Positions 461-38,065 of a stretch of 64,000 bases of DNA are shown here, one piece after another. The DNA comes from a virus (lineage: Duplodnaviria; Heunggongvirae; Uroviricota; Caudoviricetes), in IMG/VR virus record IMGVR_UViG_3300025117_000034. One strand, written 5' to 3'. The notes under the pieces were generated by a model, which was not told the origin of the DNA, searched no databases, and saw only the letters and a program-made list of their open reading frames with translations. The number at the start of each line of letters is the position of its first letter. Positions within the stretch are counted from its first letter, which is position 1. The translations under genes and the position numbers were made by a program.

Positions 461-1660
461 TTACACTCCTGTGTGCTCATTAGGTGATTCAATATTTATG
501 TCCTTGTACACTGACGTGAACAGATCAACTGCATCAATGACATTAACGCACGTCCCGCAGTAGTGGCCACCAAGGCATTCCTTGCCCTCACCGCACATAG
601 GCAATGAACCTTCAAGGTTGTAAGCCTTGTAACCCTTGCTGTCAAAGATACTCTTGACCCAATCTGCGAGCTTGTTATTGTGCTTGCAGTCAAAGCAGTC
701 ATTCACACAACCTACGTTACAATTTGCGCAGAAGTGGATATCTGTTTCGGGGGGTGCACTTTCAGCAACCGTCCCGTCCATCGGGTATTCGTCGTCAAAG
801 TTTTCGACAACCGTAACATGCGGGTTAGCATTATCTCGAAAGTTCCCCCGCGTGACGCGGCTCCCCGTGAAAACGTCGTTGTCATACCCGTCCCAGTCAC
901 GCTGCCCATGATACCCAGCAAGAAGACTGCCTTGTGAAGGCGGGGTATACGGTGGGTAGTTGTATGTAGGCTTGACAATGCGCTCAATGTAGTCCGTGAC
1001 CACATCCTTGACCTGTGCATACTCAATGTTGACCTTGATATTCTTGTAGAGGAACTTGCCACAAGGAGTCATGGCCTTGGCAGTGGCAACATAGTTGATC
1101 TCACTGCCCTTCTTGGACAGGACAATGCTATAGTTATAGAGGTTGCGGCACTGCAGATCATCCTGGCCACTATGGAACGACCCCATATCATTGTGGCTAT
1201 GCACCACACCATTGAAACCAGACCCGTCACCATCCACGATTTCCACCATGGTCTTGGTAACTTTCTGCTTCGGGAAGTCCCACTCGGTAATAACACCAGC
1301 ATCATTGACGTTATAGATCATCAACCATTCGTCAGTGGGCAAACGATTCATAAGGTCAGCCCAGATTGCCCACAGCTCAGGAGGAACCACAAGGTCTTTC
1401 GGTGTGGTTGCCTCACTGCAGGCGGTGATACAGGCACTCTTGATACCCAGCGCATCCTTGATACTCTGTTTAGCAGGGTCAGCAACGGTAGTGGCAGCAG
1501 GCGGCATAAGAGAACTCTCCCTTCCAGTAGTGTTAGCAGGCTGTCTGAATCCAACAACACGGGGTGCCGGAGCAGGCGCACCTGCAGCTTTAATGTATTT
1601 CATGTTAGTCTCCACTCTCCTTTTTTCTAAAGCCTTCTTCCAGGCTTTTTTCCTTCCCAT
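461..1660 (-). CDS. JAB/MPN (JAMM) metalloprotease with C-terminal Cys-rich zinc-finger region
   Basis: Has E...HSH-x7-S-x2-D (MVEIV...VVHSHNDMGSFHSGQDD), an exact JAMM motif. C-terminal CxxC/CxxxC clusters. AAGGGG RBS. Follows the E1 gene by 12 nt. Confidence 0.8.
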   Translation of the reverse strand: MGRKKAWKKALEKRRVETNMKYIKAAGAPAPAPRVVGFRQPANTTGRESSLMPPAATTVADPAKQSIKDALGIKSACITACSEATTPKDLVVPPELWAIWADLMNRLPTDEWLMIYNVNDAGVITEWDFPKQKVTKTMVEIVDGDGSGFNGVVHSHNDMGSFHSGQDDLQCRNLYNYSIVLSKKGSEINYVATAKAMTPCGKFLYKNIKVNIEYAQVKDVVTDYIERIVKPTYNYPPYTPPSQGSLLAGYHGQRDWDGYDNDVFTGSRVTRGNFRDNANPHVTVVENFDDEYPMDGTVAESAPPETDIHFCANCNVGCVNDCFDCKHNNKLADWVKSIFDSKGYKAYNLEGSLPMCGEGKECLGGHYCGTCVNVIDAVDLFTSVYKDINIESPNEHTGV

Positions 1661-1671
1661 AAGTGCACCCC

Positions 1672-2775
1672 TTATTGGACGTTAACACCTGCAGCTTGGA
1701 ATTTCGGCTTGAGCAGCTCCATTGCCTGCTTGAGAGCATCCCACTTTTGCTGCTGGAAAATAGTGGTGGGCAAAGTATTGACCATCTCCTGACAGTCAAA
1801 GGAGGCAAATGCATGGATGATGGTAGTATTGGTTACGGAGTGTTCCGGCTCAGCATCAAGAAGACGAGCTCGGATTTCTTCGTCATACCTGCCACGAGCT
1901 AAACAGTCATGTATGTCATCATCCCAATTGCCTTCACGTATCAGATCAGAAACACTATCAGGTGAGTAGTACTCGCAGTTATCACAGTCGCCACGGTTAC
2001 AGTTGTCACAATCACCACGATGGCAATCATCACAATGACCGAGCTTCTTGTTCGCCATTACTTTGGCTTCGGCTTGCACCATGCAAGTATCCGTGAGACA
2101 ATCCTTGACAGCCTCCATAACGAAGTCGGTCACCATGGAACTGTTGCCCATGGCGAGCATGCGCATATCCTCAGTGAAGTTGACCTCACCAGCCATAACA
2201 CTGAACACCGCAAGGGATGCAGCGGTGGCGGCAGGGATTGACCACGACGGAGTAATGGTGTAACCGTTGGTCTCCTCATCAGAGAACGTGAACGGGAATG
2301 CACGGCTGACATTCAGAGTAATACCGTCGTACCCGCACCGCTGATACTGGATGTTATTCTGGCGGCACCACTTGTTAAGCAGCTGCTGTGACTTGACATT
2401 ATCCGTGCAACAGAAGATAACGCTGGCCTCATCAAGGATTGCCACGTTCTCATCAGTGATCTTTTCCTGGTAGCAGGAAACGCTGCAGTCAGGGCGAATC
2501 TTACGGATGAAATTGCGCAGCACCTCGGTCTTGAAACTCCCCACCGCACCTGATTCAAAGGGGAGGCGGTTCAGATTACTGGTCTCCAGCTTATCCATGT
2601 CGTACAATTCAAGGCTCGGGCACCCACTCATAGCCAGGAAGATTGCCACCCAGCTGCCAGTGCCACCGCAACCAACCACCACAGCCCTTGTCGGGACATT
2701 CAGAGGACGACCCAGAGCCGATTCAAGAGCAGTTTGACGTTCGTACAAAGCTCCTTCAACACGAGTAGTTTCCAT
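1672..2775 (-). CDS. E1-like adenylyltransferase (ThiF/MoeB/E1 superfamily) with C-terminal CxxC zinc motif
   Basis: VVVGCGGTGSWVAIFLAMSG...LYDMDKLETSNLNRLPF matches the ThiF Rossmann and D-x-D...SNLNRQ signature. C-terminal CDDCHRGDCDNCNRGDCDNC. Start moved to METTRV (GGAGG RBS) just after the upstream stop. Confidence 0.85.
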   Translation of the reverse strand: METTRVEGALYERQTALESALGRPLNVPTRAVVVGCGGTGSWVAIFLAMSGCPSLELYDMDKLETSNLNRLPFESGAVGSFKTEVLRNFIRKIRPDCSVSCYQEKITDENVAILDEASVIFCCTDNVKSQQLLNKWCRQNNIQYQRCGYDGITLNVSRAFPFTFSDEETNGYTITPSWSIPAATAASLAVFSVMAGEVNFTEDMRMLAMGNSSMVTDFVMEAVKDCLTDTCMVQAEAKVMANKKLGHCDDCHRGDCDNCNRGDCDNCEYYSPDSVSDLIREGNWDDDIHDCLARGRYDEEIRARLLDAEPEHSVTNTTIIHAFASFDCQEMVNTLPTTIFQQQKWDALKQAMELLKPKFQAAGVNVQ

Positions 2776-2779
2776 TATA

Positions 2780-3535
2780 CTATGTAACCTCCCCTTCTTT
2801 CTTGGTTTCTTTCTTATCAACCTTACCGAAGAACTCCTCAACACCAGTGGTCAGCTTGATGATACCCTTCTCTGCCAGATCATTGATGTTGCGCATCCCA
2901 CCATGAGTTCCAGGGCCAATGATCTTCTCAAAGGAAGGGAGCTTAAGCAGGTTATAGCTGCCACCAAGAGAAGACATATTGATTGTCTTGAGCATGCTAC
3001 GAACTTTCTTGCTGCGCTCCACTATGTCAGCATAGCTCTTGGGAGCAGGACGAATATAGGAGCTGAGTTCACCCACGCACAGAAGCTTTTCTGAGGAGTC
3101 ACCATCCCTGTCACGGACACCAAAGTTGTTGTGGAAGTGCGAGCCGACATAAGGCCACTGGGTGAAGTAGACATACTCACCGTTCGGTTCATACACTGCA
3201 CCAATGTACCCATTGAATACTGCAGGCTCAACCATCTTCCAACGCTTGCCATAGCTGTCCAGGATATACTCAATGCGAAGTTCACCTGTGTAGCCAACAA
3301 CGCACATGTAGTTACCCTTGTAGAAACGCACAGGGATCTCAGGACTGTTAATAACTGAGGGCATATTAAACTTTGACTTGCGCAGCTCCCGCATAGCCGC
3401 ATTGATCTGCTCCAGCTTGCCTTTAAATAAACGAGCTAATGAGGGAATGGGTACAGGCTTGTCCATTTCCTTGAATACTTCGACTGTCATGGTCTGCGGA
3501 GAACCATCAGCGGTGTCTTCCTCTTCGTCAGCCAT
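2780..3535 (-). CDS. hypothetical protein; candidate E2/UBC-like fold (HxHNN...LLC)
   Basis: N-terminal helix, then a beta-rich core, then SHFHNNFG...EKLLCVGEL resembling UBC HPN...ICLDIL with a longer insert. Sits between the MIB/HERC2 and E1 genes. Start chosen at MADEEED (GGAGG RBS). Confidence 0.4.
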   Translation of the reverse strand: MADEEEDTADGSPQTMTVEVFKEMDKPVPIPSLARLFKGKLEQINAAMRELRKSKFNMPSVINSPEIPVRFYKGNYMCVVGYTGELRIEYILDSYGKRWKMVEPAVFNGYIGAVYEPNGEYVYFTQWPYVGSHFHNNFGVRDRDGDSSEKLLCVGELSSYIRPAPKSYADIVERSKKVRSMLKTINMSSLGGSYNLLKLPSFEKIIGPGTHGGMRNINDLAEKGIIKLTTGVEEFFGKVDKKETKKEGEVT

Positions 3536-4610
3536 TGCCCTGACCTCCAACTCCATTTATTTCCCACACATGCTCAAACCTGAACTGACCCTGCAGCTGA
3601 GAATCCTTGTTAACACCATGAATAGCGGCAGATCTCTTGTCACGGAGCATAACCATGAATGTGTTGCACAGACCTGCAGACTTTGCCCCATTCATAAGAC
3701 GAACTAGCACTTCCCTGACACGCTTGTTCCCAAGGTCATACAACGGGACACCAAACGCTATGAGCATGACAGACTTGCCCTCACGGTAACGCTTGAATCC
3801 CTTGAGAGCTTTCTCCACCAGCTTTTTATGCTCTTTCTCAGCAGCTTCATTGGTTGAAATCACCTTGGAGTTGATAGCATCAGCAGCTTCCTTGCGCTTG
3901 GCTGCTATCTTTGCTGCATCGTGCTTGGTAACACAGCAGATATGCTTCTTAGCATCATTGTAGGCGTAGTAATAGCTGGCAGTATTGCCCCACATCACCT
4001 CAATGTTATAGATCGTTCCATCCTGTGAGGTGAAATTACGACCTACACCAATCACCCTGCCCTTGCCAGGCTTGCCATTGGTGAAATCCTGATTGCCATA
4101 GCTCCAGTCCCTGCCACGGCGAACCATCATACCAACCTTAAGCTCGGCAGGGTAGTCATCATCGGGAAGCTCAGGAGTTTCCTCCTTCTTTTCGACAGGC
4201 TTCGGTTCCTCCACAACAACGGCAGGAGCTGGGTCGTCATCAGCAAACGGATCAGGATCTTCCACTACTGCAGGTGCCGGAGTGACCAGCACAAAGTCCT
4301 GACGTTCACCACCATACAAGTAACTGTCAGTTCTGTCATTACTATCCCAACGGATTCTGTACCAACGTGAACCAGGGTAGTCTCTGTTGTCTCTTCCTAA
4401 CTCGATAATCTCACCGGCCTGCTCAACACCATGGTAATGATCCTGTGTACCCCATTGCCAGGTAAAACCACGACGAACACGGTCACCAACAGCAGGTACC
4501 CACGGTGTTGCAGCCGGTTCCTGCTGTTGAGCAGGGGCACTGTCAGCCACCGGAGGAGCCACTACTGCTGCCGGTACAGGTGCAGCTGCTGTCAAATCAC
4601 TTAGGCGCAT
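3528..4610 (-). CDS. tandem MIB/HERC2-domain protein with Ala/Pro-rich linker and unknown C-terminal domain
   Basis: Two copies of G.RVRRG..W.WG.QD..G....G.V...........Y...W (VGDRVRRGFTWQWGTQDHYHG... and VGMMVRRGRDWSYGNQDFTNG...) match the MIB/HERC2 consensus. Start MRLSDL with GGGAGGTGG RBS. Confidence 0.8.
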   Translation of the reverse strand: MRLSDLTAAAPVPAAVVAPPVADSAPAQQQEPAATPWVPAVGDRVRRGFTWQWGTQDHYHGVEQAGEIIELGRDNRDYPGSRWYRIRWDSNDRTDSYLYGGERQDFVLVTPAPAVVEDPDPFADDDPAPAVVVEEPKPVEKKEETPELPDDDYPAELKVGMMVRRGRDWSYGNQDFTNGKPGKGRVIGVGRNFTSQDGTIYNIEVMWGNTASYYYAYNDAKKHICCVTKHDAAKIAAKRKEAADAINSKVISTNEAAEKEHKKLVEKALKGFKRYREGKSVMLIAFGVPLYDLGNKRVREVLVRLMNGAKSAGLCNTFMVMLRDKRSAAIHGVNKDSQLQGQFRFEHVWEINGVGGQGNG

Positions 4611-4830
4611 CTTCCACCTCCCCACCATAGATACTCATTATCAAGCTCATTGAAACCTCAGCCCATCGTACAAAGTCAGGGAGGTAAATGTAACCACCCT
4701 TTATATCCTTGACCATATCCATACCCTCTTCGATATGATCGGCTATCTCATCAATTTCGTCATCATCAGGTGGGGCAGACTCAGCCGACACCAGCGGACT
4801 GGGCTTCCCGTTCAGTTGTGCCATATTCAT
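4597..4830 (-). CDS. small acidic hypothetical protein
   Basis: ORF track, 77 aa, D/E-rich. First gene of the colinear run feeding into the MIB/HERC2 operon. Confidence 0.5.
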   Translation of the reverse strand: MNMAQLNGKPSPLVSAESAPPDDDEIDEIADHIEEGMDMVKDIKGGYIYLPDFVRWAEVSMSLIMSIYGGEVEDAPK

Positions 4831-6998: not shown

Positions 6999-7081
6999 TG
7001 GAGCGCACGACTGGGATCGAACCAGCATTTTCAGCTCCTGTTACGATTAACTGCTTAGAAGGCAGACTCGGCTACGTGCGC
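6999..7081 (-). tRNA. tRNA-like element with aberrant cloverleaf (possible tRNA-Arg TCT or pseudo-tRNA)
   Basis: RC gives a 7-bp acceptor stem GCGCACG/CGTGCGC, T-arm GCTGG-TTCGATC-CCAGT and an encoded CCA. The only anticodon-like hairpin is CTGC-CTTCTAA-GCAG (TCT). No D-arm can be formed. Confidence 0.45.
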
Positions 7082-7086
7082 GTTAT

Positions 7087-7551
7087 TCAAGACTTTAACC
7101 AGTGACGTATGGCATTATCAGAGACACCATATTTTCTACCTGTACCACAATATCCTAGTAATTCTACATCATTAAGCAGCATGGCAACAGAAGGTCTTTC
7201 AGCCCTTCTTTGTGATAGTCCCCAGCATTTAACGCTGCAGTACTTTTTGCTATCAATACCACAAACTGAACCACATACAGGACAAATAATAGTTTCTCTT
7301 CTAACCGGATTATGAAGTGCGCAGTGTTGGGAACTGCTGAGAACTTCTAGGTTGGCTCTAGAGTTATTTAGCTTATCTCCATCCTTGTGGTGTACGTGCT
7401 CATCTTTTCTAAGCCATCTCCCCAAGTACATCGAGGCAGCATGCCTATGATAGTACACTTTACCGTTACTAGACAAAGGGTGACCACTGTCCATAAAGTA
7501 CATGTACCCAGTACCAGTATCTAACCTTTGTTTTATGTCTTTATAATACAT
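7087..7551 (-). CDS. HNH homing endonuclease
   Basis: HHKDGDKLNNSRANLEVLSSSQHCALH is an HNH motif. Zn-binding CPVCG...C.VKC. Sits between two tRNA genes. Confidence 0.75.
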   Translation of the reverse strand: MYYKDIKQRLDTGTGYMYFMDSGHPLSSNGKVYYHRHAASMYLGRWLRKDEHVHHKDGDKLNNSRANLEVLSSSQHCALHNPVRRETIICPVCGSVCGIDSKKYCSVKCWGLSQRRAERPSVAMLLNDVELLGYCGTGRKYGVSDNAIRHWLKS

Positions 7552-7587: not shown

Positions 7588-7663
7588 TGGTGGGCAAAGA
7601 CAGAATTGAACTGTCATTGACGACTTATGAGGACGCTGTTCTAAACCATTGAACTATTTGCCC
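7588..7663 (-). tRNA. tRNA-Met (anticodon CAT)
   Basis: RC: GGGCAAA-TA-GTTC-AATGGTTTA-GAAC-A-GCGTC-CTCATAA-GTCGT-CAAT-GACAG-TTCAATT-CTGTC-TTTGCCC-A-CCA. Full cloverleaf with one T-T mismatch in the anticodon stem. Confidence 0.65.
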
Positions 7664-7722: not shown

Positions 7723-8226
7723 CTAGCCCAGGCAGATACCAGCCTTGACCGACTTGCGCACTTCAATCTCATGACCATTGAACACCGCCGGAAGGTCACC
7801 AACCTCGTCCACTTCCTCGCCATTCAGAATGATCGAGAACGAATCAACACCCTGCGAGGCAATGTCAGCCTTCAAGCGCGGCAGCACTTCGTCCGTCGGA
7901 AGAACGGTGATCTCACGGCCAAACAGCGTGTACGAAGTGCGGCTCGCAGCACCCGACAGATCACCCATGCTCATCTCCGCACCAGCCTTGACCGACTTGC
8001 GCACTTCGATGCTGTGGCCATTGAAGATAGCGGGCATATCCCCAACCTCATCAACTTCCTCGCCGTTCAGAACGATGCTGAAGCTGTCAACACCCGCAGC
8101 GGCAATGTCAGCCTTCAGGCGCGGCAGGACCTCATCCGACGGCTGCACCGTAACGTTGCGACCAAACAGCACATAGGTCGTCGTGTTCGTCGTGCCAGCC
8201 AGGTCCTGCATGTTCATGTTCGCCAT
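7723..8226 (-). CDS. tandem beta-grasp (ThiS/MoaD/ubiquitin-like) domain protein, 2 repeats each ending ...VRKSVKAG
   Basis: Two ~80-aa repeats (Y.LFGR..TV...DEVLPRLKADIA..GVDSFSI.LNGEEVDEVGD.PA.FNGH.IEVRKSVKAG). The beta-hairpin, helix, then LNGEEV...IEV...V.AG layout is like ThiS/MoaD. GAGGAG RBS. Confidence 0.5.
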   Translation of the reverse strand: MANMNMQDLAGTTNTTTYVLFGRNVTVQPSDEVLPRLKADIAAAGVDSFSIVLNGEEVDEVGDMPAIFNGHSIEVRKSVKAGAEMSMGDLSGAASRTSYTLFGREITVLPTDEVLPRLKADIASQGVDSFSIILNGEEVDEVGDLPAVFNGHEIEVRKSVKAGICLG

Positions 8227-8356
8227 GTAAATCTCTCCTCGTTACAACTAAGTTCTGCCACCAAGGGTAGCAGGTTTGAATCCTACATCTATAGCTTGTA
8301 ATGAACAGTTATATGTTACGTGCCATCCTACCCTCCCCCAGGACAGATACTACATA

Positions 8357-8575
8357 CTAGGCTTTACCTGTGTGACTAGGTTTTACTTCAACTTTGTGTA
8401 TACCAAATTCTCTGTTTAAAACTGAAGTACACTCAACTTCTACATCATCAACAAAGATATTAAATCCACGTCTATAGTCAATGGATGCTAAGTCACTAAG
8501 AATTCTCTCCCGTATTATTTCAGTTCTACCAACTGGGATAGTTTTACCGAGTATATAATAACTTGTCTTATCCAT
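8357..8575 (-). CDS. single beta-grasp (ThiS/MoaD-like) domain protein, paralog of the 7723..8226 repeats
   Basis: SYYILGKTIPVGRTEIIRERILSDLASIDYRRGFNIFVDDVEVE...HKVEVKPSHTGKA aligns with the repeat unit. Confidence 0.45.
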   Translation of the reverse strand: MDKTSYYILGKTIPVGRTEIIRERILSDLASIDYRRGFNIFVDDVEVECTSVLNREFGIHKVEVKPSHTGKA

Positions 8576-8676
8576 ATAGCACTAACCAGGAAAATTGGGG
8601 CAGCACAGGCAGACAAGAACACTGCCTTGATTTGCCCCGCATTGAGTGCAATCAAACGTTTCCATGTGGTCTCTCC

Positions 8677-9039
8677 TTATCCAAGATCTTTAAGTTTAAA
8701 ACTATTTGACCAAGGGTTCCACCCAACATCCAAGCTACTCTCAATTTTCCTTGCGTCCTCAACCAGTTTATCAATACGTTTAACACCAACTCCAGCTAAT
8801 TCCGCTAGCCTTCTCCAGTCAATCTCAATTTCCCTGCAACCCTCAACATCCATTACAATATAAGGCACTCCATCAGCCCACACATGCGTACAGTAATCAG
8901 GATTTTCAATGTAGTAGTCAATGGTAGTACGTTTGAACCTACCATCTCCGTCACTTCTCAGAAAAATGATTCTGGGATCGGGCTTAGCTTTGTAAGCCTC
9001 CCGTACTTTTTTTCTAAGGACAATATCAGTAGTGGCCAT
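8677..9039 (-). CDS. hypothetical protein
   Basis: ORF track. Start moved to MATTDIV (AAGGAGAG RBS) just after the nadE stop. Confidence 0.5.
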   Translation of the reverse strand: MATTDIVLRKKVREAYKAKPDPRIIFLRSDGDGRFKRTTIDYYIENPDYCTHVWADGVPYIVMDVEGCREIEIDWRRLAELAGVGVKRIDKLVEDARKIESSLDVGWNPWSNSFKLKDLG

Positions 9040-9050
9040 GTGGTCTCTCC

Positions 9051-9836
9051 TTAGAACAGGCGCAGGTAACAGCAAGGGTTATTGCGCTTGAAGTGAGTTG
9101 CTCTCCATCTCTTGATAATAATGTGATCCTTGTACTTCTCCGATCCATTCCAGATATGACTCTTCAGGATCTTATCCACCTCAGCGTAGCTCGATGCACC
9201 AAGCTGGTCAAGGTCGGAGTTGGTGATACCTAGTCCATCAGTAGGCACAGCTTTGATACATGCTTGCAGGGCACGTTTCTGTGCACGTGTCCCCTCATTG
9301 TCCACGATCCATTGGGCGAGCTGGTACACCTCAGTCTTCCAATAGTGCTGAATAGGTGCTATGTCGCCAACGTCCCCATGCAGAGTCCAGAAGCCAAGGA
9401 GATACTCAGTCAGGTTATCCGTGGACAGCACCGCCCCCTGGCATGAAAAGGCAGTGTTGTACAAGTGAATCATACGCACACGAGCCTTAACGTTACCTTT
9501 ACGAATTTTCTCGTTGGGTATATTCAACAAGGAAAGTTGGTGACTGCTAATTAACTCTACCTCGGAGTCAATCTCTGCTTCGAACCACCTATGAGAGTAC
9601 GTCCTACAAATGTCCCTGGCCCTCTTAAGCTCATCAGGTTTGTTAGACTTGGAAGGGAGTGAAACAAGAACCAAAGGAATACCAAGTTCCTTGTTGCAGA
9701 CATGGTAAGCAAGGGCTGCAACGAGTGCACTGTCCACACCACCACTTACACCGAGAACCAGAGACTTAAGCTGTGCCCCCTCAGTGTATCTCTTGAGCCA
9801 TGTACGTATCTTCTTCACCTCAGATTTGCAGTTCAC
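9051..9836 (-). CDS. nadE: NH3-dependent NAD+ synthetase
   Basis: SLVLGVSGGVDSALVAALA PP-loop, GNVKARVRM, TDNLTEYLLGFWTLHGDVGDIAPI and KT.VY align motif by motif with E. coli NadE. Confidence 0.9.
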   Translation of the reverse strand: MNCKSEVKKIRTWLKRYTEGAQLKSLVLGVSGGVDSALVAALAYHVCNKELGIPLVLVSLPSKSNKPDELKRARDICRTYSHRWFEAEIDSEVELISSHQLSLLNIPNEKIRKGNVKARVRMIHLYNTAFSCQGAVLSTDNLTEYLLGFWTLHGDVGDIAPIQHYWKTEVYQLAQWIVDNEGTRAQKRALQACIKAVPTDGLGITNSDLDQLGASSYAEVDKILKSHIWNGSEKYKDHIIIKRWRATHFKRNNPCCYLRLF

Positions 9837-11005
9837 ACAATCCTCCCGAACACTTGATTGAGATAGGCTAAGTAGCCATCATCCTCACACATCTGCTTGC
9901 CCTCGCTGTCACTCAGTTTGGCCACAGGTTGATACTGGCATTCCGTCATTTTTATAACACATTGCAGTGCAGGAACTCCCACATCATTGGTAAGGTTTGT
10001 ACCTATACCGAACGATGTCTTGATGTCATTACCAAACTTATTGTACAGATCAATAGCCTTGGGGATTGTCAGGCAATCCGAGAACACTGCACTCTTGGTC
10101 TTCGGGTCAATACCCATGTCCTTGTACCAACGGATCAGCTGCTCACACCAAGCATATGGATCACCACTGTCATGTCTGCATCCATCGTACAACTTGGCGA
10201 AGTACAGATCAAAGTCCTTGAGGAACGCCTTGAACCCAACAACGTCTGACAGGGCAATACCAAGATCACCACGGTACTCATCAACCCATTTCTGTAGCAT
10301 GAACTTCTGGGAATCAATGAGCCGAGGACCAAGTGCCTGACCAGCTTGGAGCCATTCATGTGCCATGGTTCCAATGGGTTTCACCCTGTGCTTCATTGCA
10401 AGGTACACATTGGATGTGCCAATGAACTTCTCAGGACATGTGCTGGCAAGGTGACCAACCACATAGTCCTGCCAGTACTTGCTGAACCTGCGCCGTGTAC
10501 CAAAGTCAGCGAACCTGAACCCTGTGGGAGCAAGGCATATATCACTGACTTTCTTGAGCAGTCGTACCTGACCCTCACCCCAGAGGATTGACTCATTCTG
10601 GGTGTGGTTGTAGTACACCTCATTGACAATGGAGAGGATGAGGGTCTCAAAGTAAATGGTCAGAAACCAGGGTCCCTCAATGGTTATACCGAGGTCCCCG
10701 TTGTCCAATGCTTTAACTGTGATGTACTTGGCATTGGGCTTGTACATCTCGAGGAAGTCAATGTAATCAGGCTTGAGGAACCTTATGGTTCGGAGGTACT
10801 CAATCTCCTGCCAATTGAACTTGAGCTCACACATCTGAATGATCTCGCTCTTGATCTCCTCAGCGAATCTGCCAAGCTCTGCCCCTGCTGTTCGGCATTT
10901 AAACTTGTACTTGACATGTGCCCCTGGGAACTGGTGAAACACAGCTTGTCCCATGCTTAATTTGTAACTGTCTAAATCTAGCAGACTTGTGATTATTCCT
11001 CCCAT
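9833..11005 (-). CDS. pncB: nicotinate phosphoribosyltransferase
   Basis: LLDLDSYKLSMGQAVFHQFPGAHVKYKFKCR matches LLDTDAYKLHMQQAVFH...EFRCR. FGTRRRFS, GTSNV..A and GTMAHEW are all conserved versus E. coli PncB. Confidence 0.9.
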   Translation of the reverse strand: MGGIITSLLDLDSYKLSMGQAVFHQFPGAHVKYKFKCRTAGAELGRFAEEIKSEIIQMCELKFNWQEIEYLRTIRFLKPDYIDFLEMYKPNAKYITVKALDNGDLGITIEGPWFLTIYFETLILSIVNEVYYNHTQNESILWGEGQVRLLKKVSDICLAPTGFRFADFGTRRRFSKYWQDYVVGHLASTCPEKFIGTSNVYLAMKHRVKPIGTMAHEWLQAGQALGPRLIDSQKFMLQKWVDEYRGDLGIALSDVVGFKAFLKDFDLYFAKLYDGCRHDSGDPYAWCEQLIRWYKDMGIDPKTKSAVFSDCLTIPKAIDLYNKFGNDIKTSFGIGTNLTNDVGVPALQCVIKMTECQYQPVAKLSDSEGKQMCEDDGYLAYLNQVFGRIV

Positions 11006-11670
11006 AGAACACGTCCGTCAAGGATAGGAGCAAGCCCTGTGATCTTGTCAATGAATCTGACGTTCTTGCCAGCAAAGCGTTTCTTGGTGTCCTCCACTGC
11101 TGTGTCACCAATACCCCTGCAGGCAGCGAGGTTGATGACCACACGGAAGCCAGCGGACACAAGCTGCTCAGAGGTGGTAGCCACGCAGTAATTAGTGGCA
11201 AGGCCCCCAACGATCACCAGCTTAATCCCCTTGCTGAACAGGAACTCAATGACCCCTGTGCTCAGCTTGTTGAACAGATCATGGAAGCATGCGCCGTACG
11301 GGTGGAGATTAGGCTCACAGCCCTTCCATACAAAAAAGTCGTACTCCGTAACATCAGGAAGACCATCCAGCAACTCACAGCCAGTGCTGCCTGTTACACA
11401 ATGGGACGGCCAGTGAATGTCCACATTGGGAAGACCAACAGGGGAAAACGGGGGGTGATCACCATCAGCGTTCCACATAGCCCAAGCAGGGTGGGCATCC
11501 TTGGAGCCAACGCGATAAGCAGCGAACAATGCCTGCTTGTTAAGTTCATTGACGATCTCAAGAGCCCCAGGGACAGGGAGCTCAGCAGGGCAGAGTTCAC
11601 TGAACCCCTTCTGAGCATCCACATCAAAGCTGGCAATGTATTTCTTGTCAATAGCCATATCTTGTGCCAC
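10993..11670 (-). CDS. pncA: nicotinamidase / isochorismatase-family hydrolase (PncA-like)
   Basis: FDVDAQKGF Asp, Lys, and catalytic Cys in ATNYCVATT, plus the isochorismatase fold pattern. Overlaps the pncB start. Confidence 0.75.
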   Translation of the reverse strand: MAQDMAIDKKYIASFDVDAQKGFSELCPAELPVPGALEIVNELNKQALFAAYRVGSKDAHPAWAMWNADGDHPPFSPVGLPNVDIHWPSHCVTGSTGCELLDGLPDVTEYDFFVWKGCEPNLHPYGACFHDLFNKLSTGVIEFLFSKGIKLVIVGGLATNYCVATTSEQLVSAGFRVVINLAACRGIGDTAVEDTKKRFAGKNVRFIDKITGLAPILDGRVLWEE

Positions 11671-11675
11671 CTTTC

Positions 11676-11945
11676 TTAGAGAGAGCTAAAAAATTTGTGC
11701 ATCCTCCACAGCAAACCACCATCAAAGTCCTTGCAATGATTGTCGTAGTTACGCTCATTACAAGAGCTTTGAAATATGGATTTCTTTTCAATGCAGTGAT
11801 CTTCAATGATGATGTTACTCTCATGAATACAGAAATGAAATGGAGACCCGATGGTGTATCTATGGAAGATACACTTAGAACAGTACACCTTAACAGGCTC
11901 AACTTTTTTCTCGTTTTCATTTACACCAAGATCGGATAGCTTCAT
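11676..11945 (-). CDS. Cys-rich mini-protein (MKLSDL family)
   Basis: 89 aa. MKLSDLG...KVYCSKCIF. Paralog of the next gene. Confidence 0.55.
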   Translation of the reverse strand: MKLSDLGVNENEKKVEPVKVYCSKCIFHRYTIGSPFHFCIHESNIIIEDHCIEKKSIFQSSCNERNYDNHCKDFDGGLLWRMHKFFSSL

Positions 11946-12250
11946 TATTTCTCCTTCTCATCGAAGTACCCAAGGAACCGTTTGACACGGAACATAAACT
12001 TTCCCTTGAAGTTCTTGCACTTGTTGTCACCATTGAGGAACAGGCACATCTCATCGGAAATTTTATTGTAACTACGCCGCAACGGGCTTGAGTAGCCAAC
12101 CATGTTTGACGGGTGCACACAAGTGCTGAGTGTCAGTTGGTGGACTTTTTCCTCCATATAAATGCATTCTTCGCAGTACACCTTGGGAGTATTGTCAATA
12201 ACCTTAGGAGTATTGTCAATAACCTTAGGTTCAAAGTCGGTGAGTTTCAT
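11945..12250 (-). CDS. Cys-rich mini-protein (MKLTDF; contains 7-aa tandem PKVIDNT repeat)
   Basis: Start moved to MKLTDFEPKVIDNTPKVIDNTPKVYCEECIY. A 21-nt direct repeat at 12185..12230. Confidence 0.55.
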   Translation of the reverse strand: MKLTDFEPKVIDNTPKVIDNTPKVYCEECIYMEEKVHQLTLSTCVHPSNMVGYSSPLRRSYNKISDEMCLFLNGDNKCKNFKGKFMFRVKRFLGYFDEKEK

Positions 12251-12387
12251 TGGATATCCTTCTCCAGACATAAGAGATGAGTGTTCAAACTGATAGACAC
12301 AAGCATTACCCAGATTGCAGTGTTATAGTCTTTTTCAAGAGCACAGGTAGCGGACAAGACGATAAGAAACGTGGATATAAGTTTCAT
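12247..12387 (-). CDS. small ORF (~46 aa) with N-terminal signal-peptide-like segment, translationally coupled
   Basis: Own translation MKLISTFLIVLSATCALEKDYNTAIWVMLVSISLNTHLLCLEKDIQ. TGATG overlap upstream and ATGA overlap downstream. Confidence 0.35.
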   Translation of the reverse strand: MKLISTFLIVLSATCALEKDYNTAIWVMLVSISLNTHLLCLEKDIQ

Positions 12388-12692
12388 CAGAGCACCTGCC
12401 CACAGCTTCCACAATACTTGACATCCGTGCCATTCTCAGCAGCACACTTGGGGCACACCCGAACTTCAATGGCCGACCCCACAGCCCCTCCAACCACGTA
12501 CCCAGCAACCCCACCAATCACAGCGTTCCATTGGTTCTCTTTGGAGCTGTCGCCCACCTGATACCCAGCCACGGTACCAATGGCAGCTCCGGCCACCTGG
12601 CTCTGCTGCGTGGTACTGCAACCCTGGGCCATCAGGATAACCAGCAATGCACTCAAGGTGAAACAGCCACACATAAGCAATCGACGAATCAT
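12387..12692 (-). CDS. lipoprotein with glycine-zipper segment and C-terminal zinc ribbon
   Basis: Signal and lipobox ...LVILMAQGC. GAAIGTVAGYQVG...GGVAGYVVGGAVG glycine zipper. CPKC...CGSC. Confidence 0.6.
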   Translation of the reverse strand: MIRRLLMCGCFTLSALLVILMAQGCSTTQQSQVAGAAIGTVAGYQVGDSSKENQWNAVIGGVAGYVVGGAVGSAIEVRVCPKCAAENGTDVKYCGSCGQVL

Positions 12693-12703
12693 TGTACACC
12701 CCC

Positions 12704-12910
12704 TTAGTATTTTTTTATCACCATGTTCTCAGCTACTCTAACAACAGTAACGCCATGAATTACTCCACCATCTCGCTGGCATGCGTGTCGTCTATGGCTG
12801 TCAGCATAGATGTTCCAGTTATTTGGATGATCTATGTTACACCCATGTTGGTTCCACTTACATTTACCATTTACAAAGTCCCGACAGATCCAGTAGTCGA
12901 GCTCAGGCAT
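12704..12910 (-). CDS. Cys-rich mini-protein, NMV(I/L) family
   Basis: 68 aa. ...VVRVAENMVIKKY. Confidence 0.5.
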   Translation of the reverse strand: MPELDYWICRDFVNGKCKWNQHGCNIDHPNNWNIYADSHRRHACQRDGGVIHGVTVVRVAENMVIKKY

Positions 12911-13124
12911 AGGGTTTCCCCTTTACTATCACCATGTTCTCAGCGTATGCTACCAAAGGAACTTTTGCATATGAATTGCCCCTGGTGCAATGTACAGGAG
13001 TGCCTTTAATATAATACTCATACCACGTACTATCTGAGCCACGTGGCTTTCGAACCTCACACCCAAAGGGTGCCCAGGTACATATGCCCTTTGCGAAGTC
13101 TGAGCAGATAAATTGCTCATCCAT
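12903..13124 (-). CDS. Cys-rich mini-protein, NMV(I/L) family
   Basis: 73 aa. ...AYAENMVIVKGKPYA. AAGGAGG RBS. Confidence 0.55.
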   Translation of the reverse strand: MDEQFICSDFAKGICTWAPFGCEVRKPRGSDSTWYEYYIKGTPVHCTRGNSYAKVPLVAYAENMVIVKGKPYA

Positions 13125-13614: not shown

Positions 13615-14547
13615 TCATTTCAGTCCCTCCTCCACTTCCTCATTGAACTTAACCAGTCGCCTGTTGCAACCATACAGACACTTATCGCATTTCTCAGGCT
13701 TGTCAGTGTACACTTGATCCCTGTACAGATGCGAACAGGTGTACTCGTTGCCAGCAGTGCTCAGCACCCTCTCACTCATTGATATGTAGCATGTCCCAGC
13801 AGTGTTCTGTGGGAACCGAACACCTTGAATGATCCTTTGCTTGGCATCCAAAGTCTCCTTGATCAGTTCAAGTGATTCCCTGTCAAGTTCATTGTAAAGC
13901 TTGGGCATCACCTCATCAAAGAAGCAATCCACGTCCTCATCAGTCATCATGTAGACAGGGTTGGTGCCCTTGTACACAGAGAAGAACACTGCGTATGCCT
14001 TGTGGAATTCCCTGGCCGCAAACTGGGCAAACTCAACGGACTGCTTGTAGTTTGCCTTGCTCAGCGTGAAGGTAACGCTGACACCATTGTTAACCTCAAC
14101 TGCCTTCTTGATGTTACCAAGCACCCTGGCATGTGCACCAGGAACCCCCACTGTTTTATCCCAGGACTCTGCATCACAGCTATCAAGGGATACCTTGAGC
14201 CGTCCAACGTGCTCAGCTGGCGGCTCAATGAAAGCATTGGTGTTCAGGTTGAACCTGTACCGCTTGCTGTTCTCACGGATCAATGGATACAGCCATGGAA
14301 CCAGTGACGGCTCCCCTCCCGTGATGTGGAACAGGGCTGTGCTGCCATACTTTTCAAGGGCTTCCCTGAAGCGTTCCTCAGCCAGTGTTGTACAGGAGAT
14401 AGGATGCTTACAGTATCCGCACTTGAAGTTACACTTGTTAGTGATGAACACTGCCACCCTGCGGACAGGTGGGTTTTGCCCAGACTTCAGTGCTGCCACT
14501 GTTTCCTTAACTCGTCGTTCAAAGTCATCCCAATACAAGGAAGACAT
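13615..14547 (-). CDS. radical SAM enzyme, MoaA/viperin-like (CNFKCGYC, ITGGEPSL, C-terminal CxxC..C)
   Basis: ITNKCNFKCGYC matches MoaA ITDVCNFRCTYC and viperin CNYKCGFC. HITGGEPSL matches LTGGEPSL. NLNTNAF. C-terminal CDKCLYGCNRRLV resembles MoaA CATCNRLRV. Confidence 0.75.
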   Translation of the reverse strand: MSSLYWDDFERRVKETVAALKSGQNPPVRRVAVFITNKCNFKCGYCKHPISCTTLAEERFREALEKYGSTALFHITGGEPSLVPWLYPLIRENSKRYRFNLNTNAFIEPPAEHVGRLKVSLDSCDAESWDKTVGVPGAHARVLGNIKKAVEVNNGVSVTFTLSKANYKQSVEFAQFAAREFHKAYAVFFSVYKGTNPVYMMTDEDVDCFFDEVMPKLYNELDRESLELIKETLDAKQRIIQGVRFPQNTAGTCYISMSERVLSTAGNEYTCSHLYRDQVYTDKPEKCDKCLYGCNRRLVKFNEEVEEGLK

Positions 14548-30386: not shown

Positions 30387-30815
30387 CTAGTCTTCTGGAT
30401 AATAGTTCTTGTTACCATGCCTGTGCTCGTCATCCATATCATTAGCTTCTCTCTCAGCTATAGCCTTCTTCTTGCGCAGCTCTGCCTCAATGGAATCAAT
30501 GGGCCACACCATACACTGCTCCCGCTTGTATGTGTCGGAGAAGATGCACTGCTCATCAGGTAGCATGTTGCAGAACTTAACCTGTAATGTTTCCGGTACG
30601 TTATCATAGCTCTTACGCATTACATCCACAGCTTCCTCTGGGCTTGATGCCTTGATAGCCCCAACCATAATGTCATTCATGTCACAGTCCATACCAGTGA
30701 TCCACCAAGGACCATGGTACTCAAACTCCTTCTTGCTACAAGGAGAGATCCAGCTTAGGAAGTACGTGTGCTTAGGTAGTTCCTTCTTAGTCCTCTTCTT
30801 AACTCTACTAGCCAT
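30387..30815 (-). CDS. hypothetical protein
   Basis: ORF track, 142 aa. Confidence 0.5.
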   Translation of the reverse strand: MASRVKKRTKKELPKHTYFLSWISPCSKKEFEYHGPWWITGMDCDMNDIMVGAIKASSPEEAVDVMRKSYDNVPETLQVKFCNMLPDEQCIFSDTYKREQCMVWPIDSIEAELRKKKAIAEREANDMDDEHRHGNKNYYPED

Positions 30816-31369
30816 TAAACCTTACCCTCCCTAGCGAACCGTTCTAGTATGATCCATGCCTTTGCACTGATCATTGCACTGCTATCCTTAAGTAGATCTG
30901 AAACCTCTGCTCGAGTTGCTACATAAGTAGTTATGTCCTCTGAGTCCTGTAGGTCAGGTTCTCCTACACCACCACGTGCCTCACAGTATACAATGGCTAT
31001 AGCTTCATCTGTAAGGCCAGCTGAGTTATACACAAAAGGACTTACACGATTTATACCGAAGAGTGAAAACCCTGTCTCTTCCTTGATCTCCCTGTATGCT
31101 GCGTCCTCAACGCTCTCCCCATCATCTATGAGCCCTGCAGGGAACCCCCACTCGTAGCCGCCAAGAGGTGCCCTGTACTCCCTAGTGATAATAATGTTGT
31201 CACCTATGGTAGCCACAATCATTACAGCGTTGACACCAGTACGCCTTGTGACGAACTGCCAATGCTTTGTGTTACCCTTGATCTCATATGTCCTATCAAT
31301 GAAGGACAGGTGGTTGGTACCAGCTAGGAGCTCATCACCGTCCCCTAGCTTTATTGGATTACGTCTCAT
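30815..31369 (-). CDS. Nudix hydrolase, ADP-ribose pyrophosphatase-like
   Basis: Nudix box GGYEWGFPAGLIDDGESVEDAAYREIKEETG (G-x5-E-x7-REuxEExG). Overall layout as in ADPRase/NudF. Confidence 0.8.
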   Translation of the reverse strand: MRRNPIKLGDGDELLAGTNHLSFIDRTYEIKGNTKHWQFVTRRTGVNAVMIVATIGDNIIITREYRAPLGGYEWGFPAGLIDDGESVEDAAYREIKEETGFSLFGINRVSPFVYNSAGLTDEAIAIVYCEARGGVGEPDLQDSEDITTYVATRAEVSDLLKDSSAMISAKAWIILERFAREGKV

Positions 31370-31386: not shown

Positions 31387-31458
31387 TGGAGGGAGTGGCG
31401 AGACTTGAACTCGCAACCCCATGATCAGTGGTGCTCTATCCATTGAGCTACCTGCCCA
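31387..31458 (-). tRNA. tRNA-like element / degenerate tRNA (perfect D- and T-arms, 3-bp anticodon stem, mismatched acceptor)
   Basis: RC: GGGCAGG-TA-GCTC-AATGGATA-GAGC-A-CCA-CTGATCA-TGG-GGTT-GCGAG-TTCAAGT-CTCGC-CACTCCC-T-CCA. The acceptor pairs at only 4 of 7 positions. Anticodon would be GAT. Confidence 0.35.
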
Positions 31459-31580: not shown

Positions 31581-32405
31581 TTAAGGAACCTGAATCATTG
31601 CTGTAGTGTTGTTTCCTAGAACCGTGGTAGGCATTGCACCATTCCATCTCTCAATCCAACGCAGCTGAAGAACCTGTGGGCTCTGAGCCAGGGCCTGGGC
31701 AGTAAGACGGATAGCCTCAGCCTTACCCTTGGCTTCAGCAATGGCCTGATCAGCTTCAAACCTAACCTGCGCTAGCTTGTTCTCTGCTGCTAGAGCATTC
31801 TGCTCTGCTGTAACCTTGGCCTCAACGGCAGCATTGAAGCTGGGAGAGAAGTCGAAGTTAACAATGTTAAGCTCGTCCACTACAATACCCATGGGGGCAA
31901 GCTTCTCACGCAGTAGAACCTTGATAGCCTCGCGCACCTCTTCACGCTTGGTAACCAGTTCCTCTGCTGTATAACGTGCTGTCACTGACTTCACTGATTC
32001 CTGCAGGGCAGGGTCAATCATACGATCCTTGAAGTCAACACCGAACTGCTGGTAGATAGTTGCCACTGCCTCAGGCTTAATGTTAAAGTTAAGAGCCACA
32101 ACACTATGCACTATCTGAAGATCCTTGGATGCTGCAGAGGCTTCAGTCTGCTTCTTCTGAACACGAACGTCAGCAATGATAACTTCCTGCACGAACGGGA
32201 TCTTAATGTATAGACCTTCACCCTTTACGTCTGAGGACACTGCACCGAACGTAGTAGTAACACCACGCTCACCAGCCCCTACAATACCGAACGTACCACT
32301 GATAGCACATAGAACTAGAACAACCAACACACCACCTACAACAACCTTCCAATTAACAAAGTCCATTGCCTCTCCTTTTATTACCCTCTTGCGGGGTGAT
32401 ATCAT
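31581..32405 (-). CDS. SPFH/band-7 (prohibitin/HflC/stomatin-like) domain protein
   Basis: N-terminal TM, then GLYIKIPFVQEV...TARYTAEELVTKREEV...LAPMGIVVDELNIVNFDFS...AEQNA...EA.GKAEA, a typical SPFH domain with a coiled coil. Confidence 0.85.
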   Translation of the reverse strand: MISPRKRVIKGEAMDFVNWKVVVGGVLVVLVLCAISGTFGIVGAGERGVTTTFGAVSSDVKGEGLYIKIPFVQEVIIADVRVQKKQTEASAASKDLQIVHSVVALNFNIKPEAVATIYQQFGVDFKDRMIDPALQESVKSVTARYTAEELVTKREEVREAIKVLLREKLAPMGIVVDELNIVNFDFSPSFNAAVEAKVTAEQNALAAENKLAQVRFEADQAIAEAKGKAEAIRLTAQALAQSPQVLQLRWIERWNGAMPTTVLGNNTTAMIQVP

Positions 32406-36151: not shown

Positions 36152-36748
36152 CTAAGCTACTTTAACTTTACACACCCATGCAGCCTGGAGGAATGGATCA
36201 GCAAGCAGTGGTCGTAGTAGGTATCTCCGGCTACATTCCTCTATATGATTCTCTGTAATCTCGCAGCAAGGCCACACCTTACCACGCATCTCCTTATTAA
36301 AGAATGTCATATCAGGTGCATAGTCATGAGCCATAATAATATCCCCAACCTTAAGGAATTGGGAGAAGTGATTGAACTCACCAATCTTGTTACCATTGTC
36401 GCATAGTAGAACTGTGATGCCATCCTGCCTGATCATATCAGAGATCTCTTTTAGTGTATCACTTGCAAAGATATCCTTGAACCGCATATCAACACCGAGC
36501 TTATCCAGTACTGACTTGTCAAACAATGAGTTAGCAATGTCGTAGGAGATTACAGAGCAACCTGCTGTTAGGCTGTATAAACCAAGGAATGTAGTGAGCC
36601 CACCATTGAGAGCACCTAGCTCAATGACACGAGCTGGCTTCACAGTCTTGAAGAGCATATCAAAAGCCTCAAGAGCATACTCGTTCTGTGACATTGGGTA
36701 CCCAAGGAAGTCAAGCCTACCTGAATTACCAACAACACTATGCTTCAT
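36152..36748 (-). CDS. class I SAM-dependent methyltransferase (CmcI/Methyltransf_24-like)
   Basis: ARVIELGALNGGLTTF resembles motif I. Size and position fit the glycan cluster. Confidence 0.45.
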   Translation of the reverse strand: MKHSVVGNSGRLDFLGYPMSQNEYALEAFDMLFKTVKPARVIELGALNGGLTTFLGLYSLTAGCSVISYDIANSLFDKSVLDKLGVDMRFKDIFASDTLKEISDMIRQDGITVLLCDNGNKIGEFNHFSQFLKVGDIIMAHDYAPDMTFFNKEMRGKVWPCCEITENHIEECSRRYLLRPLLADPFLQAAWVCKVKVA

Positions 36749-37454
36749 ACGTGAACTCCTTTAGCTCAAACACTGGTTTAAACGTGGCATTAGTTGTGAA
36801 TGACTTTGCATTACTGTGTATACCATTGATACCTATATGGTTACTACGTGAGTGACCAGGAACAACATTGAACATATTGTTCCTCTCAATGATCCTTCGT
36901 ATGTTCCAGTCCCAACCACCTGGAGTTCCTGTAGCCTTACCACTTGAGTAATCAAAGTCCCATGTGTTACGCAGATACGTATTCCATCTGTCCTTCCATG
37001 TCATCCATACCCAGCAGGTTAGCAATCCTAATTTTCTAAATGCATATGGGTTATCCTCTTGCACCGTTTCATTCCTACCACTGACAACCATCACATCCTT
37101 CTGATCCTTGAACAACTTATCAGCTGCAGTGAACATATCAATGATATCATTAGATACAATGAAGTCTTCCTCTGCCAGTACTACACTATCTGAATGTTCA
37201 AACCCACGCTCCAAAGCATTCCAGCTGTTCTTTGCACAACCAATGACTCCCTCATTAACATTGATTGTTACATCACCCACTGAAGAGTTATGACAGAACG
37301 AATCAAGGACAGCAATCATCTCCTTGAGCTTGTCAGTCTTCTCTATATTGAATATCATCTTTACCTTATCAAGATTGTTAACTGCTGCCCAGGAATTCAT
37401 AGTCTCAACAAAGTAATCAACTCTGTTGAATGCAGTGAATGTTATGCAAAGCAT
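36738..37454 (-). CDS. glycosyltransferase, GT2-like (GT-A fold)
   Basis: N-terminal CITFTAFNRVDYFVETMNS resembles GT2 IPTYNR. Acidic EED motif. Confidence 0.45.
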   Translation of the reverse strand: MLCITFTAFNRVDYFVETMNSWAAVNNLDKVKMIFNIEKTDKLKEMIAVLDSFCHNSSVGDVTINVNEGVIGCAKNSWNALERGFEHSDSVVLAEEDFIVSNDIIDMFTAADKLFKDQKDVMVVSGRNETVQEDNPYAFRKLGLLTCWVWMTWKDRWNTYLRNTWDFDYSSGKATGTPGGWDWNIRRIIERNNMFNVVPGHSRSNHIGINGIHSNAKSFTTNATFKPVFELKEFTYEA

Positions 37455-38065
37455 GTGGCTCTGTACCCCTCCATGATTACCTCTAGTATGTTCTCATCCT
37501 TTGTAGCCATGAACAGACCACGATCTGTTCTCTCGTTGTCCCGCTGTTCACAATCATGTACCCAGTAATAACTTGGGTCATTAACTATAACGTTGTACAA
37601 CGTTATAGTTAATGCGCAACCACCGAGCTTTAGGTTAACCGAGTTGGTGTCATGAGCTACCAATAGCCTAGGTAGTTCTGGCTTAGCTATGATAGCTTTC
37701 CACTCCTCCTGGGTTGGAGCAAGGCGATGGTCGCTGTCCAGGAACACAACATCAAAGGGTGGGTTGATACGTATGGCATCAGCACCCTTACCATGGAAGA
37801 TCTCATGCCCACCAATAACCTTTATTGCCTGTGGCTGAAAGTTAATGTCAGCGAACATAGCTCTAAGGATATGCCCCTTGTTGGCTGCATCAACGAACAC
37901 AGAGCTCGACACACCCTTCCACGAGCCAGACTCCAATGATGATAGCCATGGCCCACCAACAGGGTTGCTCAACACGTAGTGCATCCACTCTAAATGCCTC
38001 GTGTCAATTGACATACCAATGTCGAAGTCTGTCACACCTAGCTCAGCAAAGTTAATGTTACTCAT
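37442..38065 (-). CDS. methyltransferase-like protein (DVVFLDSDH motif)
   Basis: FDVVFLDSDH resembles class I O-MTase DFVFIDADH. Confidence 0.4.
   Translation of the reverse strand: MSNINFAELGVTDFDIGMSIDTRHLEWMHYVLSNPVGGPWLSSLESGSWKGVSSSVFVDAANKGHILRAMFADINFQPQAIKVIGGHEIFHGKGADAIRINPPFDVVFLDSDHRLAPTQEEWKAIIAKPELPRLLVAHDTNSVNLKLGGCALTITLYNVIVNDPSYYWVHDCEQRDNERTDRGLFMATKDENILEVIMEGYRATCFA

Follow-up and report, generated by a model that had tools for sequence, protein, structure and literature searches.

Gene content and layout of the NAD+ salvage locus

The stretch of DNA considered here (64,000 nucleotides, hereafter the window) belongs to the IMG/VR virus record IMGVR_UViG_3300025117_000034 and carries, between positions 9051 and 11670, three genes that probably constitute a phage-borne Preiss-Handler (deamidating) NAD+ salvage module, their activities being predicted from the intact genes. 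Three co-directional open reading frames (ORFs) of the minus strand fill this interval exactly. They encode a PncA-like nicotinamidase (10993-11658, minus, 221 aa from the called ATG at 11658), the nicotinate phosphoribosyltransferase PncB (9833-11005, minus, 390 aa) and NadE, a single-domain, NH3-dependent NAD synthetase (9051-9836, minus, 261 aa, GTG start). The longest ORF of PncA (10993-11670, 225 aa) reaches a GTG at 11670, and its residue positions are given below in the numbering of this 225-aa ORF. The first-pass annotation of this DNA had described the three genes as overlapping, and this arrangement was borne out, with overlaps of 13 nt between PncA and PncB and of 4 nt between PncB and NadE. 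Shine-Dalgarno-like sequences lie upstream of the PncA ATG at 11658 (AAAGGTGG) and of the GTG start of NadE (GGGAGGA), that of PncB being weaker than both. Overlaps this tight point to co-expression of the three genes within a long co-directional array of small genes. No NAD+ riboswitch or riboswitch of another kind was found near them with Rfam.

Directly upstream of PncA are two paralogous small Cys-rich ORFs, 11676-11945 (89 aa) and 11945-12271 (approximately 101-108 aa), both on the minus strand, which match no family and are kept in all contigs of this phage.

Identity and active sites of the three enzymes

PncA gave weak profile scores: it reached 29 bits against the Pfam Isochorismatase family (PF00857, cut-off 27), and its best NCBIfam match, the nicotinamidase equivalog NF008623, reached 60.7 bits, below the cut-off of 174. 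Such weak scores, together with a single-sequence AlphaFold model that was unusable (pLDDT 44), would be compatible with some other isochorismatase-fold amidohydrolase, in which case the unit would only boost the conversion of nicotinate to nicotinate mononucleotide (NaMN) and of nicotinate adenine dinucleotide (NaAD) to NAD. We consider this highly improbable, given that the PDB search returned only nicotinamidases or pyrazinamidases at E<1e-3 (seven matches, the top one being 2WT9, 4.2e-14) and that the PncA gene accompanies that of PncB in dozens of viral contigs. The active site points in the same direction. The catalytic triad Asp18, Lys116 and Cys162 aligns with that of 2WT9 and of the PncA of Escherichia coli K-12, with which the phage protein shares 31% identity over 179 aa. 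Asp58 and His60 of the motif KDAHP and His90 of WPSHC, the metal ligands, likewise align with those of the solved enzymes and of E. coli PncA. A metal-binding Asp/His/His set is what marks nicotinamidases within the isochorismatase fold, and the Asp, Asp/His, His and Cys positions are invariant across seven phage homologues. The predicted reaction of PncA is thus the deamidation of nicotinamide to nicotinate and NH3.

The case of PncB is much clearer. It scored 533 bits against NF003704 (cut-off 379) and 442 bits against TIGR01514 (cut-off 269.55), carries both expected Pfam domains, NAPRTase_N (PF17767) and NAPRTase (PF04095), and matches PDB 1YIR, the PncB2 of Pseudomonas aeruginosa, end to end (347.6 bits, residues 4-386). 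The motifs DFGTRRR (167), GTMAHEW (His216), RHDSGD (277) and FGIGT (332) align with 1YIR, 3OS4 and the PncB of E. coli K-12, with which it shares 41% identity over 389 aa. His216 stands at the position of the phospho-histidine (autophosphorylation, ATP coupling) of Salmonella PncB. The predicted reaction is nicotinate plus PRPP (phosphoribosyl pyrophosphate), with ATP, to NaMN.

A search of genome contigs with PncB returned three loci and no clue about the host: two were in metagenome-assembled genomes and the third was a chromosomal gene of the Asgard archaeon Candidatus Lokiarchaeum ossiferum (CP104013.1, L030), 54% identical and as close to the phage PncB as its viral relatives are. Two other matches were set aside. 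The record named Acinetobacter phage MD-2021a (L015, CAKLQH020000008.1) is a bacterial chromosome, with serB, psd, phoBR and ribB around pncB, and was not counted; a tblastn match in Moraxella phage Mcat17 lies at the end of the record and is without annotation.

NadE scored 148.9 bits against TIGR00552 (cut-off 63.65) and is covered by a single Pfam NAD_synthase domain spanning residues 7-253 (5.8e-42); profile searches found no glutaminase (CN-hydrolase) domain in its 261 aa. Besides an intact PP-loop, S31-G-G-V-D-S36, it has the motifs KGNVKARVRM and STDNLTE..GFWTLHGD. By its sequence the protein belongs to a short, distinct subfamily. Its nearest homologues (50-58% identity, 260-290 aa) are metagenomic, and all three of the contigs examined look phage-like. 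The predicted reaction is NaAD + ATP + NH3 to NAD+, and a NaAD-using NAD synthetase fits the finding that members of the NadE clade stand beside NadD-type adenylyltransferases in three contigs (L020, L022 and L024).

The best solved relative of NadE, at 78.8 bits, is 3FIU, the NadE of Francisella tularensis, reported by Sorci et al. in 2009 to be an NMN (nicotinamide mononucleotide) synthetase. If the phage enzyme were of this type, the route would run from nicotinamide through nicotinate and NaMN to NMN, and a host NMN adenylyltransferase (NadR, NadM or a weak activity of NadD) would then complete it, which would explain why no NadD is encoded. We regard this as unlikely. The margin in favour of 3FIU is small (11 bits, the next PDB match scoring 67.4), and the three residues reported to set NaMN preference, Y27, Q133 and R236, are Ala, Phe and Ser in the aligned phage NadE, so that the signature is absent, a comparison that serves as a lead only. 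The neighbours of NadD-type enzymes in L020, L022 and L024 are homologues of the phage NadE with 39-54% identity, and a host adenylyltransferase would be required either way. The adaptation of NadE to NMN synthesis does exist; the short NadE of Methanocaldococcus jannaschii, however, is a strict NAD synthetase without this activity (PMC3376133).

Taken together, these profile, PDB and E. coli matches give strong support to the three identities given in the first-pass annotation. Its description of PncB and NadE as matching their E. coli counterparts motif by motif held for PncB and has to be relaxed for NadE, which is 33% identical to the E. coli K-12 protein over the N-terminal 181 aa (two thirds) only and has its best solved relative in 3FIU. 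It had also named mutated catalytic residues as a reason for abandoning its reading; the catalytic motifs are intact in all three proteins, and none of the genes carries a sign of decay in its sequence.

The carrier phage

The phage origin assumed by the first-pass annotation was borne out, the window encoding a major head protein, a prohead protease (Peptidase_S77) and a T4-type portal, with nearly all its genes on one strand. Proteins identical to those of the window recur on many groundwater-metagenome contigs of 139,368-139,741 bp, and since these contigs start at different points, they fit a complete, circularly permuted phage genome of approximately 139.6 kb. By walking outward from both ends of the window we have merged 123,390 bp, approximately 88% of this genome, and the genome-wide searches described below refer to this sequence. 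No close relative was found among cultured or deposited phages, a 4-kb near-identity DNA search against 50,697 phage records giving only a 37-nt match. The DNA ligase of the phage is ATP-dependent and no NAD+-consuming phage enzyme was seen in these approximately 123 kb.

Recurrence of the module in viral contigs

At least 215 viral contigs of IMG/VR carry a NadE of this clade (here and below the counts are of contigs, several of them from one sample, and not of independent lineages). A neighbourhood census of the best 80, with 6 kb examined on each side, found PncA, PncB and NadE within 6 kb in 51. The contigs measure from less than 10 kb to 467 kb, many of them below 200 kb. A NadD- or NadR-like gene was near the trio in 27 of these 51 loci and none was present within 6 kb in the other 24. 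Restricting the census to the 59 loci with full flanks left 39 trios, of which 23 have a NadD-like gene nearby and 16 have none. PncA-PncB-NadE is therefore a recurrent viral module, and its NadD-less version is common.

Four related IMG/VR contigs have a PncA (61-67% identity) adjoining a PncB (53-56%), and one of them lacks NadE. The NadE that follows PncA and PncB in these close relatives is only 28-29% identical to that of the window, which indicates that PncAB has acquired a neighbouring NadE on more than one occasion; such repeated recruitment argues for selection on the combined function. Conversely, the nearest relatives of the window NadE (52-54% identity) are found on other phage-like contigs with other gene orders: NadE-PncA-PncB-NadD-Nudix in L024, PncA-x-NadE-NadD with an Apyc1 gene nearby in L022, and NadE-x-x-PncB in L023 (x being any other gene). 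Further arrangements are PncA-x-PncB-NadE-AAA-x-NadD-Nudix in a 117-kb human-gut phage scaffold and PncB-x-NadE...NadR-like-x-PncA in the 735-kb phage LR756501.

Mobile endonucleases may help to move the NAD module. In one IMG/VR relative (L006), PncA and PncB are separated by an inserted GIY-YIG homing endonuclease (9276-10001), and the window has an HNH endonuclease (7087-7551) at a distance of 1.5 kb downstream of NadE.

The adenylyltransferase step

A route through NaMN and NaAD needs a nicotinate mononucleotide adenylyltransferase, and the first-pass annotation had claimed that the phage has no NadD, suggesting a search of the rest of the genome. No NadD-like ORF was found in or beside PncA-PncB-NadE, and Pfam scans of the larger unassigned ORFs of the window revealed no adenylyltransferase. 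Among the precomputed Pfam assignments of the called genes around the window there was no CTP_transf_like, NadR, NadM, Nampt or PnuC. A hidden Markov model (HMM) of NadD, trained on E. coli NadD together with three NadD-like proteins of phages, found nothing better than E=0.1 among all six-frame ORFs of the 123,390 bp, and a phmmer search of the same ORFs with a phage NadR-like protein gave no match. The claim thus survived the wider search, and with no NadD, NadR, NadM or Nampt in approximately 88% of the genome, the step from NaMN to NaAD likely depends on the NadD of the host.

The pathway could still be self-sufficient if a NadD or an NMNAT were encoded in the remaining ~16 kb. In favour of this, the search covered 88% of the genome, and in about half of the related viral loci a NadD- or NadR-like gene does lie within 6 kb. 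However, these relatives place the adenylyltransferase beside the module and not at a distance, and the four closest relatives by PncA and PncB all lack one in their 10-kb flanks. The remaining ~16 kb are bordered by baseplate genes (gp25-like and Phage_base_V) on one side and by genes for proteins of 805 aa and 562 aa on the other, and therefore probably contain tail genes. We consider self-sufficiency very unlikely.

Proposed pathway and its possible purpose

From these genes we infer a route in which the enzyme activities, the reliance on host NadD, the co-expression and any part in immunity are all putative. PncA would deamidate nicotinamide to nicotinate, which PncB would couple to PRPP, with ATP, giving NaMN; host NadD would adenylylate NaMN to NaAD, and the phage NadE would amidate NaAD to NAD+ with ATP and free ammonia, which matches the by-product that PncA would release. 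The expected effect is that the NAD+ pool of the infected cell is raised, or restored, from nicotinamide or nicotinate. The selective benefit would most likely include recovery from defences based on NADases (TIR, SIR2, SEFIR), as proposed because these release nicotinamide.

Depleting NAD+ is a major way in which bacteria resist phages, and phage routes that rebuild NAD+, the NAD+ reconstitution pathways NARP1-3, have been validated since 2024. Our tentative proposal, one that we would not press, is that PncA-PncB-NadE plus host NadD, perhaps helped by a phage Nudix hydrolase, represents a fourth, deamidating route of NAD+ reconstitution that escapes TIR, SIR2 and SEFIR immunity and is widespread in uncultivated phages. 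Classical salvage enzymes do defeat NADase defences in the cases of NARP2 (bioRxiv 10.1101/2024.02.11.579819) and NARP3 (PMC13464706). No test of the PncA-PncB-NadE route against immunity was found in the literature searched.

The genomic context makes a role in counter-defence plausible, an Apyc1 gene lying 8.6 kb away and an ADP-ribose pyrophosphatase-like Nudix gene being present in the genome. The former encodes an Apyc1-like anti-Pycsar protein of the metallo-beta-lactamase fold, of which the window contains the N-terminal 152 aa (1-457, minus, downstream of NadE). The full gene is found at 11147-12025 of the contig L010, with a precomputed Pfam assignment to PF23023 (Anti-Pycsar_Apyc1); the translation of 1-457 is identical to the first 152 aa of that protein and contains HLHGDH. 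An unrelated viral contig, L022, also has a homologue of Apyc1 within a few kb of its NAD genes. The Nudix hydrolase (30815-31369, minus; Pfam NUDIX 7.8e-15) resembles ADP-ribose/ADP-sugar pyrophosphatases: its top PDB matches are NUDT5, NudE and ADPRases, and in NCBIfam NudE and YffH/AdpP come first, neither of them reaching the cut-off. Over 152 aa it shares 37% identity with the Nudix protein inside the NadE-PncA-PncB-NadD-Nudix cluster of L024, from which we infer that it is a possible partner of the NAD module located outside the operon, converting ADP-ribose (ADPR) to AMP and ribose-5-phosphate. It may recycle ADPR or destroy it.

A plainer alternative is that these genes are auxiliary metabolism with no role in immunity, supplying extra NAD+ to a large phage in nutrient-poor groundwater hosts or complementing a host without salvage. 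The phage Preiss-Handler and salvage clusters studied by Cui et al. were indeed read as an NAD+ supply complementing host pathways (PMC11662467), NARP2 increases NAD+ also where no defence system is present (bioRxiv 10.1101/2024.02.11.579819), and the jumbo phage PA5oct up-regulates the pncA-pncB1-nadE operon of its host in an ordinary infection (PMC7318152). The module is, besides, surrounded by genes of many kinds. What speaks for something more than supply is the entry point, since PncA would start from nicotinamide, which NADase effectors specifically release; the vicinity of Apyc1 to NAD genes both in the window phage and in L022; and the ATP-dependent ligase and lack of NAD+-consuming phage enzymes in the 123 kb analysed. 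We take metabolism without immunity seriously while rather doubting that it is the whole explanation. The metabolic and counter-defence roles are compatible and not mutually exclusive, and as to a real counter-defence benefit of the module, our opinion is nearly balanced, leaning slightly against it.

Several points weigh against the proposed deamidating salvage module and its benefit. The route takes four steps, with three ATP-consuming reactions plus PRPP, and requires a host enzyme, so an activated NADase may outpace it. The same enzymes are already present in many bacteria, yet NADase defences still deplete their NAD+. The ligase being ATP-dependent, and no NAD+-consuming enzyme having been seen, there is no obvious demand for NAD+ internal to the phage. 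The identity of the first enzyme has to be read with its score below the nicotinamidase cut-off in mind, and the search for an adenylyltransferase covered 123.4 of ~139.6 kb. Finally, scans for promoters and terminators (8000-13000) gave results at or below shuffled expectation, so that the term operon is used here on the grounds of gene overlap and spacing only.

Comparison with known NAD+ pathways

The route from nicotinamide through nicotinate, NaMN and NaAD to NAD+ that the first-pass annotation had drawn is supported by the gene identities, and it was right to separate this route from NARP1 and NARP2, to which NARP3 can be added, the defining genes of all three not being found in the sequence searched. 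NARP2 (Nampt/NadV plus Nmnat, Vibrio phage KVP40; Osterman et al.) likewise starts from nicotinamide and PRPP and rebuilds NAD+ in the infected cell by classical salvage. NARP2 is an amidated, two-step route from nicotinamide through NMN to NAD with its own adenylyltransferase, whereas the route of the window would be deamidated and of four steps, would use PncB in place of Nampt and need NadE, and has no phage adenylyltransferase that we could find. NARP2 has also been tried against defence systems, whereas the window module is known from its genes alone. Neither Nampt, CTP_transf_like nor NMNAT was detected in 88% of the genome by Pfam or the NadD HMM. NARP1 (Adps plus Namat) shares the proposed purpose, the rebuilding of NAD+ from the products of NADases, and differs in using ADPR-PP (ADPR pyrophosphate) and nicotinamide through two novel reactions; no Prs-like, Namat or Nampt-type gene appeared in the Pfam assignments of called genes or among the larger ORFs of the window, where the sole phosphoribosyltransferase is of the PncB type. 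NARP3 (PnuC transporter plus NadR-like enzyme, phage Bas30; PMC13464706) is also a salvage operon encoded by a phage, but it imports nicotinamide riboside and converts it with NadR; PnuC and NadR were absent from the Pfam assignments of called genes, and the phmmer search with the NadR-like protein was empty over the same 88%.

The novelty implied by the first-pass annotation was, on the other hand, overstated. Phage Preiss-Handler clusters of the type pncB-nadD-nadE have been reported in "NAD-jumbo phages", for example Kuafu_71 (Cui et al., Microbiome 2024, PMC11662467), pncA, pncB and nadE have already been catalogued among viral auxiliary genes (PMC12647753), and the same trio occurs in dozens of IMG/VR contigs, about half of them without a nearby NadD. 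The trio therefore belongs to a known and widespread kind of phage NAD+ salvage module. With the NAD-jumbo phages it shares the clustering of phage PncB and NadE and a deamidated NAD+ route that is predicted computationally, and pncA was also noted in phages by those authors. The differences are that the window phage has a genome of ~139.6 kb and not >200 kb, that no nadD was found in 123.4 kb of it, which makes the pathway incomplete by the definition of Cui et al., and that PncA is an integral, overlapping first gene.

The compact three-gene version described here, with intact active sites and no adenylyltransferase found, offers a clean test construct for a candidate fourth route of NAD+ reconstitution. 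It poses the questions of whether nicotinate salvage that depends on the host is fast enough against an NADase and whether host NadD is the bottleneck. The trio occurs commonly, in viral contigs of every size and not in jumbo phages alone, and a counter-defence role, if true, would apply broadly; if false, the module would be ordinary auxiliary metabolism.

The trio also has a cellular counterpart. The phage NadE scored only 49.9 bits against 4XFD/5F23, the NadE of P. aeruginosa, while the phage PncB reached 347.6 bits against 1YIR. Since the subfamily of NadE differs from that of the nearest relatives of PncB, the phage trio looks assembled from parts and not copied whole, and en-bloc capture of a Pseudomonas-type pncA-pncB-nadE operon is unlikely given these different affinities. 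The P. aeruginosa operon itself (PA4918-PA4920; PMC7318152) combines these three functions in an identical order within a single transcription unit, with no nadD between them, but it is chromosomal and the phage NadE comes from a different, short subfamily.

Other genes of the window

A group of genes possibly forms a phage ubiquitin-like conjugation set (461-4628 on the minus strand, 7723-8226 and 8357-8575), the Apyc1-like gene following directly downstream of its JAB and E1 genes. It includes a JAB-like protein (461-1603, minus, a weak Prok-JAB match), a ThiF/E1 protein (1672-2844, minus, 1.9e-30) and a protein with an MIB_HERC2 domain (3528-4628, minus, 6.8e-14), together with a 251-aa protein without an assigned family. 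A 167-aa protein made of two repeats of ~80 aa and a 72-aa protein appear ThiS/MoaD-like by eye.

Elsewhere in the window we have identified a radical SAM protein (13615-14547), an SPFH/Band-7 protein (31581-32405), a run of methyltransferase and glycosyltransferase genes (36152-38723) and a 770-aa double glycosyltransferase (56469-58781), which suggests glycosylation or another modification of the DNA or the virion. A clear tRNA-Met is located at 7588-7663. Two weak tRNA-like Rfam matches (33 and 35 bits; 7002-7081 and 31390-31457, minus) were not called by ARAGORN, and one of them sits immediately upstream of the Nudix gene.

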